Assembly (NCBI GenBank): GCA_039621445.1
Contig: CP154954.1
Span: 8,248,634-8,312,633, forward strand
Length of the DNA stretch: 64,000 bases
Direction of reading: 5' to 3'
Origin: Euglena gracilis
Taxonomy: Eukaryota
Shown here piece after piece: positions 15,201 through 18,200 of this stretch; the stretch's first letter is position 1, and each line of letters begins with the position of its first letter. Made by a program: the position numbers and the translations under genes. Under the pieces are notes generated by a model, which worked only from the letters and a program-made list of their open reading frames with translations, had not been told where the DNA came from and searched no databases.

Positions 15201-18200
15201 GAAAAGATTGTTTCAATTCAGATGCAGGCGGGGAGGGGTCAATATGCAGGGCGATCCTTTGGCATCCTTTGTCAATATGCAGGGCGATGCGTTTTCAGCA
15301 TATTCTATGAAAAATCCACAAAAAAAAGCCGAAAGAAATGGCCATAATTTGGCAAAATTGGGTCGAATTTGGGTGAAATTTCTTGGAAAAAATGTGCGTT
15401 TCGACCTTTCAATTTTCGACCCCATTTGAGCCCCAGTGCGGCCCTTACCCAGCCCTCAGGCTTGCAGGTGGTCCTTGAGGGGTGGTGCTTGGGGAGAGGG
15501 GGGAAAACCAAATATCCCGTCCCTTATGGACGCCTTGTCGACGACATAGCACTGCGCAAGGATAAAACGAAGGCGAAGGAAGGAAAATCAGGGAAAAAAA
15601 CACCACCCCCTTCCCAACCACCCCCCCAAAAAATTCCGGGATTCCCATCTTCCTGGAGGTGGGGTTGATCTTGGGGGGACCCCTGGCCCAGCACCCGGGG
15701 AAGCTCGGCCTCAACCCCGAGGTTCAAAGTCGAGAAATCAACTTGCGCAGGCGAGAAGAGCGCGATATCGCATGGCCACACGTCGCCCTGGCCACACCAG
15801 GGATTCAGCCATGCAAGACGCATGCTCCAATTGCACGCCGGCAGAGGTTGACTCGGCACACCGTTCGAAGAGGCCGGAAGGGCGGTGGCTGCGGGCCCCG
15901 ACTGAACGGTGGTGACTTGTTGGTAGCCCACTGCTTAAAGACCCCAGGGGGTCCACTGGCTGGCCATTTACTGGAAAAAAATGGACTAGCTAGACCCCCC
16001 TCTCCCCCTGCGGGGGTCTGGGGAGTCCCCCCCCCCCGACTGGAAAGAATTTTTTTTCTGGCAGTGATGCCGAGGTGGAAATGCGGCTCTTAGTGCATTT
16101 TTTGGCTGATTTTGTCCAAAAAAAAATCCCAAAAAAGGCCCAAAATGGGCATTTTTGGCCATTTTTGAGGGTCCCAGAAATTTTTTCCAGTGATCAGCAC
16201 GAAATCCCGCTCACTGGAAAAACTCCACTAGCCCTGCCAGCAGACCCCCCGGGGGGAGGTTCCACCATAATTCCCAGAAGCCAAATCTGTAGAAGCTGCA
16301 GTCCAGCCCCCCCCCCCCCAGGGTGCTGTGAAACCTTAAGCAAAGGCCTGCTTGTTGGGCGGCTGCAGAAGTGGAGGTCGTGCCTGCGGAGGGGGAGGGG
16401 GAAGTGGTGCACACTGACAGGGAAAATTCTGAGAGGAAAGATCTGGCAAATTGTATGGGTTGGTGCCAAGCCTCCTTTTCAGAATCGGATTGGTGCCAGT
16501 GTGGTCTTCAGCTCAACCCCACACAGGCTATTGCGTTAGCACTCCAGGAGAGGGGGGCTGGCCATTTTGCTGGACACTGGAAAAAAGGAACAAACTAGAC
16601 CCCCTGGGGAGGGGGTCCGGGGGTCCCCAAGACTGGAAAGAAATCTTCCTCCAGCGCTGTGCGCCAATGTGGAAACGAGGCTTTTAATGTGTTTTTTTGG
16701 GATGATTTTTTTTGCTCCAAAAAGCCCAAAAATGGTCAAAAATGGGCATTTTTGGCACTTTTGGGGGACCCAAAAATTTTTCGATGCTTCACGTTTTTCA
16801 CTGGAAAAAAAATCACCAAGCCCTGCTGGATTTCCCCCCCCCCGGAGAGTCCACTCATCAAATTTGGACTAGCTGCAGTCCAGCCCCCCCCCCCCCCACA
16901 AGGGGTTACCGCAACCCTTAAGCAATGGCCTGAACCCCAAGTTTTGAAGAAAAAGCCAAAAAATGGTGAAAATGGGGTCCCCTCCCCAACCTGTAGGGTC
17001 CCATGCCAATCGGGAGGGTCTTTTAAAAAAGCCTGGTCTCGCAATGTGTGCCTCAAACGACCCTATTGTTATTCCAGCAGGCTGTTCCTTGGACAGACGA
17101 AGGGGGGGATGGCCCAAGAGGAAAGCAGTATCTCTCGGTGTCTACCCACACCTGTACTTTTAACAGCTGCACCGGTGCAAAACCCAAGTTAACAAAAGCA
17201 GGGGACCCGGATGGCTTTCTTTTTGGCCTTTCGGTCAATTCGATTTGTGAAGTTCGGAACTTTTTCCGAAGTTTTACACTGCCCCGTTTCACAACGAATA
17301 CACAACAGCTGGGTAAGCACAAACTGGATGGTGCGCCCACACATCCAACTTTCGAAACCCCCTTTTGGGGAGCAACTATCCTGCCATCCGAGAATATTTG
17401 GTTTCAATGATGACACCGGACAGGGAATGCACGCACAACTCTGTCGGACTGACCACAGCGAGGCAAGATCGACCACACCGCAGTCGCCCCCGTCGAAGCT
17501 GCACGCCTGCACGTTGCACGCCGGGTCGCACGGCGAGTTGCCGATCTTGTCCAGGGATCCTTTGACTCACCTCACCGCAACGTGCAAAAAAAAATTGCAA
17601 GCCTGGAGCTGGGGGGGGGAGGGGAGCCTTCAACAAATCCCTGACTCAAGAGAAAGGGCAGCCAGGCACACACAGTGGCAGTGCTGAGGAAAAGAAAACC
17701 CAACACGAATGCTGAGATGGGGCAGGTTGCCAGGGCTACAACAATGCTCGTTGGCAACTGTGGCACACTGCTTCAACGGTCCAGTGGGAAAAAATCACCA
17801 AAAATTTGGAACGCAAAAAGAAATCAATCAAAACAGCAGAAAATTTATGTTCCAGGTCACACCATTCACAAAATCAAATACAAATTTCTGTTGCCGATGG
17901 GGGGATCACACTGGAGAAAAGCGGGTGAATAAAATTTTAAAGTGGCAGTCTTGGCTGATAATAGAAAAATATGGGGGCCTCAGCCTGGAAAAATATTTGG
18001 AGGACCCAGAAAAAAATGGAGATTGAAGAAAGATTTAGGGTTTTAGAAACAAATTAATAAAATAGGTTACCAACATAGGAATCTGACTTTGGTCAAAACA
18101 AAGTCGGAATTTTCTCGCTCAAATAAAGAAATGCCAATATCCTCCAAATTGGCACCAGTTTTGTGCACCTCATCGTGAAAATGATGGTTTTTTTTCGAAT

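Follow-up and report, generated by a model that had tools for sequence, protein, structure and literature searches.

Nonconventional (NC) introns make up 71.8% of all introns in Euglena agilis, and the Euglena NC code has been written as N3-CDG...CH'G-N5-6|R (PMC12501133). In knock-ins, changing any one base of CAG or CTG proved defective, and the CTG-to-CTA variant, made in one short test intron, gave transcripts with the intron retained (PMC12501133). By the same source, only 61.2% of the annotated NC introns of E. agilis have the defined code, so that off-code introns exist. Further sources add that CA/TG at +4,+5/-7,-6 are the most conserved pairing nucleotides of natural NC introns (PMC3935182), that Y|R junctions are among the NC-intron rules (PMC4770533), and that NC introns are released as circular RNA (PMC11282704). 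An 8-nt repeat at one young NC intron was noted in 2016 and ascribed to break repair (PMC4770533).

The findings bear on how euglenid NC introns arise and are removed, and the material is a window of 64,000 nt from Euglena gracilis (the whole stretch of DNA analysed; contig CP154954.1, positions 8,248,634 to 8,312,633). An origin of NC introns from MITEs has been proposed since 2013, as a hypothesis only. Our full-text literature search found no transposon family named as their source, and no text in which the 8-bp duplication of hAT elements is brought together with the 3+5-nt code.

The window holds a hAT-like MITE inside a spacer exon on the minus strand. Listed in the direction of transcription, the features of this insertion are:

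16384..16410, minus strand: conventional 3′ splice site of the upstream intron, a C-rich tract with CGCAG| at its end (acceptor CAG| ending at 16384, as read on the minus strand)
16351..16383, minus strand: upstream piece of the spacer exon, 33 nt, GT absent throughout
16351..16358, minus strand: target-site duplication, copy 1, CCAACAAG
15924..16350, minus strand: hAT-like MITE, 427 bp, a high-copy repeat
16350-16334, minus strand: 5′ repeat of the MITE, CAGGCCTTTGCTTAAGG
15940-15924, minus strand: 3′ repeat of the MITE, CTA at its end
15930..15933, minus strand: in-frame ordinary AG acceptors made by or near the MITE 3′ end, from enumeration
15916..15923, minus strand: target-site duplication, copy 2, CCAACAAG
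15862..15915, minus strand: downstream piece of the spacer exon, 54 nt, AACG at its end, then the donor GTGTGC (15861)

On the minus strand the first letters of the element are CAGGCCTTTGCTTAAGG and the last are CTTTAAGCAGTGGGCTA. The earlier note had placed a MITE at 15924-16350 in a coding-like exon with a perfect 8-bp duplication, had given the upstream piece a canonical acceptor and no usable GT/GC donor, and had proposed that removing the MITE plus one duplication copy leaves an 87-nt symmetric exon. These claims are borne out: the two flanking copies are identical at 8/8 positions on the minus strand, the 33 nt of the upstream piece hold zero GT, and the arithmetic works (33+54 = 87 nt, phase 1-1, with 435 nt, or 3 x 145, taken out).

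Other fates of the element can be read from the frame. The reading frame of the upstream piece enters the MITE and meets a stop at about 16210; retention would thus bring in a stop codon, as the ORF 16211..16507 ends within the element. Enumeration gave four in-frame AG acceptors, with exon starts at 15933, 15930, 15915 and 15888, that leave stop-free exons of 72, 69, 54 and 27 nt. Five internal GT...AG pairs would also keep the frame, but we regard them as unlikely given their weak donors and the approximately 35-45 MITE-encoded residues that they would leave behind.

The host gene is a multi-LNR (Notch-LNR-repeat) gene with six 105-nt LNR exons that have conserved CAG| and G|GTGTG sites. All cysteines, the D/N-GGDC motif, the 105-nt length and the splice sites are kept in six of six, and each LNR exon tested (4/4) matched Pfam PF00066. 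Two exons serve as references for the focal one:

14952..15056, minus strand: next exon, a 105-nt LNR exon, phase 1-1 (Pfam PF00066, E = 1e-9)
18393..18473, minus strand: paralogous spacer exon, uninterrupted, 81 nt, phase 1-1, AACG|GTGTG at its end, used as an 'empty-site' proxy

The focal spacer exon is rich in Ser/Thr/Ala/Pro. Its resemblance to the other pre-LNR spacer, also claimed in the earlier note, is confirmed by this 81-nt paralog, with which it shares acceptor, donor and phase; the paralog's acceptor at 18473, CCCCCGCAG|, is of the same type as the focal one, and so are those of the LNR exons. Since exons here are all in phase 1-1, skipping of the focal exon would keep the frame.

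One explanation of the insertion is that the MITE and one duplication copy are removed seamlessly by the NC pathway, which would restore the 87-nt exon and make the element a newly born NC intron; we judge this unlikely. Placed in the code register, the element has the borders C|AAG ... CCAAC|AAG, which are non-GT/AG, with Y|R on both sides and a purine first in the downstream exon, which begins AA. The 5′ motif agrees with the code (N3 = AAG, then CAG at +4..+6; 16353-16348, minus strand). The 3′ end has CTA rather than CTG at -8..-6, followed by CCAAC, a 5-nt spacer of the correct length. The focal copy thus shows 4/5 code elements, the only exception being the G at -6, and with the A found there the C(+4)-G(-6) pair is lost. 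This qualifies the cut C|AAG-CAG...CTA-CCAAC|A of the earlier note, whose NC spacing and Y|R junctions stand, but which overlooked the A at -6 and the loss of that pair. The same CTG-to-CTA change left the test intron retained in knock-ins (PMC12501133); the defect is known from a single short intron, and the same source also has introns that depart from the code.

The ends of the element may be able to pair. Their duplex, at -20.9 kcal/mol, is as strong as those of two inferred NC introns of the same gene (-21.9 and -18.1 kcal/mol), while canonical copies of the MITE reach -31 to -36 kcal/mol. In the focal duplex C+4 and A+5 of the CAG are unpaired and pairing starts in a shifted register. 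Folding of the whole element (463 nt) gave a minimum-energy structure that leaves the two ends unpaired, which speaks against NC removal, although this fold, of a sequence rich in G/C runs, is deemed unreliable. An alternative NC register, with CTG at 16368-16366 and a CAG at the MITE 3′ end (in-frame 75-nt exon), was rejected because the sequences adjoining the motifs are not complementary, as judged by eye.

The MITE belongs to a group of elements that recurs in the window. Its terminal-repeat pattern CAGGCNTTTGCTTAAGG has 11 window matches at <=3 mismatches versus 0.89 expected from shuffles, and 0/100 shuffles reached 11. Full copies include:

10963..11326: canonical member of the family, with perfect terminal repeats CAGGCATTTGCTTAAGG and a perfect 8-bp duplication
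44312..44723: canonical member of the family, with perfect terminal repeats and a 7/8 duplication
16524..16932, minus strand: further family member of 409 bp, within the intron that directly precedes the focal exon (flanks agree 7/8, with a 1-nt offset)

The earlier note had put the focal element and the copies at 10963-11326 and 44312-44723 in one family. The terminal-repeat pattern is indeed common to them, but the focal MITE is only 67-73% identical to the other copies in the window and so represents a different subfamily; its 3′ end, CTA instead of CTG, departs from the canonical 3′ repeat at 6/17 positions, and its two ends agree with each other at 11/17 positions as against 17/17 in the canonical copies. 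The terminal inverted repeats of hAT elements are short and begin (C/T)AG. The focal termini have this form (5′ end CAGGCCTTTGCTTAAGG; 3′ end, when reverse-complemented, beginning TAGCC), the duplications are 8 bp long (8/8 in the focal copy and at 10963-11326, 7/8 at 44312-44723), and the element, at 427 bp, is small, non-coding and multi-copy. Contig depths from DNA run X1 summed to 5,777-72,436 over MITE bins versus 37-180 in unique bins, and although such depth does not equal copy number, a value hundreds of times that of unique bins indicates a high-copy repeat. Family termini at 40235 and 42578 were considered as one element and rejected, since their flanks match at only 4/8 positions and do not make a clean element. 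Metagenome matches to the focal 18-nt 3′ terminus, at 10 loci, never extended their identity to the MITE past 18-20 nt and were put down to chance.

Candidate older NC introns lie in the same gene:

17547..17646, minus strand: NC-type intron, 100 nt, splits an LNR exon, N3-CAGGGATTTGTTGAAGG ... CCCTG-N5 | G
20711..21451, minus strand: homologous NC-type intron, 741 nt, at the same codon of another LNR exon, with a nested MITE at 20746-21014

Two of the six LNR exons are thus split by NC-type introns of exact N3-CAG...CTG-N5|G geometry. Their NC status is inferred from paralogy, as taking the introns out restores a motif that runs unbroken through the four unsplit paralogs. The ends of the 100-nt intron pair in its minimum-energy fold, and 14/17 positions at its 5′ end agree with the MITE repeat pattern. 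Both the shared geometry and this resemblance favour NC removal of the focal element, as does a recently gained NC intron of E. agilis with 8-nt junction repeats (PMC4770533).

A scan of the window found eight other CAG...CTG elements with an 8-bp duplication at <=1 mismatch, and controls in which the downstream 8-mer was shifted by 1, 2, 3, 4, 5 and 10 nt gave 1, 0, 0, 0, 0 and 1 elements. The NC pathway cuts 3 nt ahead of CAG and 5 nt beyond CTG, offsets that together equal the 8-bp hAT duplication, so that CAG...CTG elements with such a duplication are geometrically ready-made NC introns. From comparisons of this kind the general idea that MITEs may become NC introns gains support within the window. 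Its boldest form is speculative: that hAT-type MITEs with CAG...CTG ends are the direct and still active source of NC introns, the focal copy being a just-born one removed despite its CTA, is a proposal that we hold with little confidence. It is likewise doubtful that the cut offsets of 3 + 5 nt reflect, at the RNA level, the 8-bp stagger with which hAT transposase cuts, and there is a small chance that each exonic insertion is erased from the message with exactly one duplication copy.

Three same-species RNA runs, of which about 5%, 6% and 56% were read, and DNA run X1 were mapped onto 13900-18700. RNA reads on this region numbered 31, 56 and 31, all on repeats, and of these 31, 54 and 31 overlapped the stretch only in part; in the portions read (about 5%, 6% and 56%) there were none on unique exons of the host gene. 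No RNA-supported joint was seen among the 15 of 66 joints listed. No RNA read in the portions read, and no joint among those listed, favours NC removal. RNA depth was 0 in the bin with the LNR pieces 17479-17546 and <=0.13 in the bin with most of 14952-15056. Searches for a longer protein containing the LNR exon gave 326 word-sharing candidates for query 14794-15090 and two for query 14932-15072, none scoring in either case, which is weak evidence; Rfam gave 0 matches over the whole window.

Such low depth in three runs, and the lack of a product in the protein-collection searches, would suit a silent or decaying gene copy whose exon is out of use, so that the MITE would have no consequence for RNA. 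We consider this quite improbable: the six LNR exons have kept cysteines, motif, length and splice sites as described above, and with about 5%, 6% and 56% of the runs read, condition-specific expression would be missed.

The DNA reads bear on another alternative, that the insertion is specific to a haplotype or paralog in a polyploid, largely clonal genome, and that the function of the exon comes from an intact copy at another place. This too seems unlikely to us, and we are similarly hesitant about its corollary that the filled copy is a tolerated disruptive insertion and the empty allele would be the source of any 'seamless' junction in RNA. X1 does contain second-haplotype sequence in the stretch, namely a contig at 16904-17232 with eight differences (depth 27.3 versus a total of about 110) and a variant at 16388 (depth 18.5 of 129.3), and a duplication still perfect at 8/8 would fit a young insertion. 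Among the 15 of 66 X1 joints listed, none links about 15915 to 16351 as an empty site would, but this is not evidence of absence, because only 15/66 joints are listed and contigs drop rare variants.

The reading that we prefer, with moderate confidence, is that the NC pathway removes the focal copy poorly or not at all, and that skipping, AG use or retention would take its place. A hAT-like MITE of a high-copy subfamily with asymmetric CAG...CTA ends inserted into the 87-nt spacer exon and made the usual 8-bp duplication. As the copy is without G at -6, its NC removal is most likely absent or poor. We infer what happens to the RNA of the focal exon from its sequence: if transcribed, the exon may be skipped with the frame unharmed, the in-frame AG at the MITE 3′ end may be used, or the element may be retained, a stop codon met and the message degraded. 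The exonic hAT-like MITE is real, its splicing is only putative, and removal that is absent or inefficient is, for this copy, the more likely outcome.

The window yields a MITE superfamily with the right ends and duplication length for NC introns, old NC-type introns with related termini in the same gene, and a young exonic copy with a natural CTA variant that makes a sharp test of the NC code. Splicing of the focal copy would mark the first time that an NC intron has been caught at birth; absence of splicing would make it a natural non-spliceable control and give the published code an independent confirmation.

Among known systems, maize Ds, a non-autonomous element of the hAT superfamily, resembles the focal MITE in its 8-bp duplication, its short repeats starting with CAG, its small non-coding form and its asymmetric outermost base. 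In Ac termini, too, the outermost base is asymmetric (CAG...CTA). Giroux et al. reportedly found in 1994 that Ds is removed from transcripts through cryptic splice sites. Exonic Ds insertions are partly spliceable by the ordinary spliceosome and usually imprecisely, whereas removal of the focal MITE as proposed would be precise and use a different pathway. Unlike a hAT system with an autonomous partner, the window shows no cognate transposase among the 14 translations scanned (transposase-family Pfam matches 0 of 14; the window lists 16 ORFs of >=230 aa). Introners of Micromonas, dinoflagellates and others (PMC11282704) are like the proposal in that a DNA transposon and its duplication supply their own RNA-removal signals; these are GT-AG or spliceosomal signals, whereas non-spliceosomal euglenid signals are proposed here.

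The euglenid NC introns themselves (PMC12501133, PMC3935182 and PMC4770533) share with the focal MITE the missing GT-AG, CAG at +4..+6, the 5-nt 3′ spacer, a purine as first exon base, Y|R junctions, inverted-repeat ends that may pair, and direct repeats at the junctions that make the intron 'slidable'. They differ in having CTG at the 3′ end where the focal MITE has CTA, and removal of the latter from RNA is only putative. The focal MITE is recognisably one of a high-copy transposon family, while the full-text literature search found none so shown for published NC introns. A single case to compare is intron 4 of gapC in E. agilis ACOI 323, like the focal element a strain- or copy-specific coding insertion with an 8-nt direct repeat; it is known to be spliced, whereas splicing of the focal MITE is putative, and its authors ascribe the repeat to double-strand-break repair (PMC4770533). 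At the focal site a transposase origin is the simpler reading of the repeat, because it flanks a clear terminal-inverted-repeat element.

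The locus had been described as a 427-bp MITE lodged in coding-like sequence within an 8-bp duplication, behind an upstream piece with a canonical acceptor but no usable GT/GC donor. Both statements are borne out by a minus-strand reading of 15600-16700, where a C-rich tract closing with CGCAG| places the acceptor at 16384; in E. gracilis, the 3′ splice sites of conventional introns are reported to be marked by such C-rich tracts with CAG (PMC11170887).

Anatomy of the focal insertion, in minus-strand order
16383..16351 (-), upstream exon piece, a 33-nt open frame with no GT
16358-16351, octamer CCAACAAG, immediately before the MITE
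16350..15924 (-), focal MITE, 427 bp, beginning CAGGCCTTTGCTTAAGG and finishing CTTTAAGCAGTGGGCTA
15923-15916, the same octamer, immediately after the MITE
15915..15862 (-), downstream exon piece, 54 nt, sharing the frame of the upstream piece and followed by donor GTGTGC

The anatomy is confirmed, a good illustration of a euglenid-type exon harbouring a hAT-like MITE. Although the MITE and one octamer together span 435 nt, a length divisible by three, the reading frame hits a stop within the element (ORF 16211..16507).

The host gene, on the minus strand, carries six LNR modules within 32375-14952, and Pfam PF00066 matched all four modules tested (E 1e-9 to 4e-11). Four of the six are uninterrupted exons of 105 nt, preceded in every case by a pyrimidine-rich tract that ends in CAG| and followed by the donor G|GTGTG; the LNR exons are all phase 1-1. 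A paralogous spacer exon at 18473..18393 (-), 81 nt long and rich in Ser, Thr, Ala and Pro, has acceptor CCCCCGCAG| and end ..AACG|GTGTG, exactly as in the focal pieces. Because these borders agree, the 33 and 54 nt represent one ancestral 87-nt exon, which upholds the symmetric exon proposed earlier, and the paralog serves as an empty-site proxy for it. No longer protein containing the LNR exon was found in the protein collection searched. A minus-strand open frame at 3-710 encodes thrombospondin type-3 repeats (PF02412, E = 1.5e-10) and may come from the same large extracellular-module gene. The LNR-gene introns hold long microsatellites, (ACAT)n with 72 copies (13522-13811) and (AC)n with 91 copies (18751-18933).

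The two remaining LNR exons are interrupted, at the identical codon, by introns of the euglenid nonconventional (NC) type.

NC-type introns of the LNR gene
17646..17547 (-), short intron, 100 nt
21451..20711 (-), long intron, 741 nt

Both open with three nucleotides and then CAGGGATTTGTTG, and close with CCCTG and five nucleotides, the next exon beginning with G. Excision in the code register (3 nt before CAG, 5 nt after the 3′ motif) restores C-P-F-S-W-I-G-N-S, which is contiguous in the four unsplit paralogs; these act as empty sites for both introns. The two introns have their ends in common, along with part of their internal sequence; the ends of the short one pair in its minimum-energy fold, and the long one contains a nested 269-bp MITE (20746-21014, duplication 7/8).

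The focal MITE is a member of a real repeat family. Its terminal-repeat pattern CAGGCNTTTGCTTAAGG has 11 window matches at three or fewer mismatches (shuffle expectation 0.89; 0 of 100 shuffles reached 11), among them the 5′ end CAGGGATTTGTTGAAGG of the short NC-type intron, at 14/17. The further copies named in the earlier note, 10963-11326 and 44312-44723, hold up, with perfect 17-nt terminal inverted repeats and flanking duplications of 8/8 and 7/8, and one more copy was found:

16524-16932, additional family copy in the intron directly upstream of the focal exon

Aligned over 250-416 nt with the other copies in the window, the focal copy reaches only 67-73% identity; its 3′ terminal repeat has 6 mismatches in 17 to the canonical repeat and ends in CTA, not CTG. 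In X1, a DNA sequencing run, summed contig depth at ≥95% likeness, which is not a copy number, was 5,777-72,436 over focal-element bins versus 37-180 in unique bins. As a rough reading of bin averages, this suggests an abundant subfamily to which the focal copy, and probably its terminus too, belongs. A MITE-like terminus, CAGGGGTTTCCTTAAGC, also lies at 29732-29748 (-), beginning 26 nt beyond an LNR exon whose end is at 29773. Elsewhere, at 58438-63996, a 151-bp satellite in blocks of 2-10 copies with 97% matches is nested in a ~1167-bp higher-order repeat. A minus-strand frame there remains open for 1178 codons until the window ends; its Pfam match, to DUF6306, is weak (E = 1.8e-6).

The published Euglena NC code reads 5′-N3-CDG ... 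CH′G-N5-6|R (PMC12501133). The fit of the two LNR-gene introns to this code is the chief ground for regarding the source organism as a euglenid; Rfam yielded no marker. Cut in that register, the focal copy gives C|AAG-CAG ... CTA-CCAAC|AAG. It matches the code in the 3-nt and 5-nt spacers, in CAG at +4..+6 and in Y|R at both junctions (rules in PMC4770533), the downstream exon starting with a purine (A) and a second A, but departs from it at -6, where the motif CTA lacks the G. The most conserved pairing nucleotides are reported to be CA/TG at +4,+5/-7,-6 (PMC3935182). Any single substitution in CAG or CTG abolished function of a test intron, and a frame-preserving CTG-to-CTA variant gave transcripts retaining it (PMC12501133); a strict reading is weakened because, of the NC introns annotated in E. 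agilis, just 61.2% have the defined code (PMC12501133). The duplex of the focal ends (-20.9 kcal/mol) is weaker than those of the canonical copies (-31.0 to -35.6) and close to those of the two putative NC introns (-21.9 and -18.1); its register is shifted, leaving C+4 and A+5 unpaired, and in the whole-element fold the ends do not pair. Seamless removal of the MITE from pre-mRNA is improbable in our estimate; for this copy, the most important base, at -6, argues against it. We put at about even the chance that the copy is removed poorly or not at all by the NC pathway, the outcome being skipping, alternative acceptors or decay. Skipping would be frame-neutral because every exon is phase 1-1. 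Ordinary AG acceptors would also keep the frame, yielding exons of 72, 69, 54 and 27 nt, all free of stops, for starts at 15933, 15930, 15915 and 15888; the CAG| for 15930 is created by the copy's divergent 3′ repeat.

The remaining probability is shared by two further readings, that the insertion is allele-specific and that the locus is silent. Three same-species RNA runs (~5%, 6% and 56% read) and X1 were mapped to 13900-18700. The RNA runs placed 31, 56 and 31 reads, all of them in repeat bins; 31, 54 and 31 of these, respectively, overlapped the stretch only in part. In these partially read runs RNA depth was zero, three of three, in the bin with LNR pieces 17479-17546, and ≤0.13 in the bin with most of exon 14952-15056; none of the 15 joints listed of 66 had RNA support. 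X1 covered 30 of 30 bins and yielded minor-haplotype contigs, one over 16904-17232 at depth 27.3 where total depth is ~110, and no empty-site joint was among the 15 listed of 66. Relative to the window, the contigs over 16904-17232 and 17505-17788 carry 5-8 differences, and their depth is lower or separate, which suggests that the locus has a second haplotype or a close paralog.

The window was scanned for elements starting with CAG and ending with CTG, with ≥11/14 terminal complementarity and an 8-bp flanking duplication with at most one mismatch. Eight were found, from several families, among 191 repeat-pairs irrespective of flanks; displacing the downstream octamer by 1, 2, 3, 4, 5 and 10 nt gave counts of 1, 0, 0, 0, 0 and 1.

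CAG...CTG elements with duplication
8030-8337
10963-11326
20390-21053, spans an exon, probably spurious
20746-21014
23312-23551
26981-27219
39389-39623
44312-44723

One family is 240 bp long with ends CAGGGGTTTTTTTA. NC cuts fall 3 nt ahead of CAG and 5 nt beyond CTG (3+5 = 8), so an exonic element of this type would be excised from the RNA along with precisely one copy of the duplication. Within the window there is good support for a general connection of NC introns with CAG...CTG MITEs carrying 8-bp duplications, one that merits a genome-wide test. No paper linking hAT elements to NC introns was found in the full-text literature searched, and in PMC3935182, PMC11282704, PMC12621601 and the Discussion of PMC12501133 a MITE origin appears only as a hypothesis. 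Eight-nucleotide direct repeats, ascribed to break repair, flank an NC intron that one strain of E. agilis gained recently (PMC4770533). Both NC-type introns of the LNR gene fit the published Euglena code exactly (N3-CAG...CTG-N5|G).
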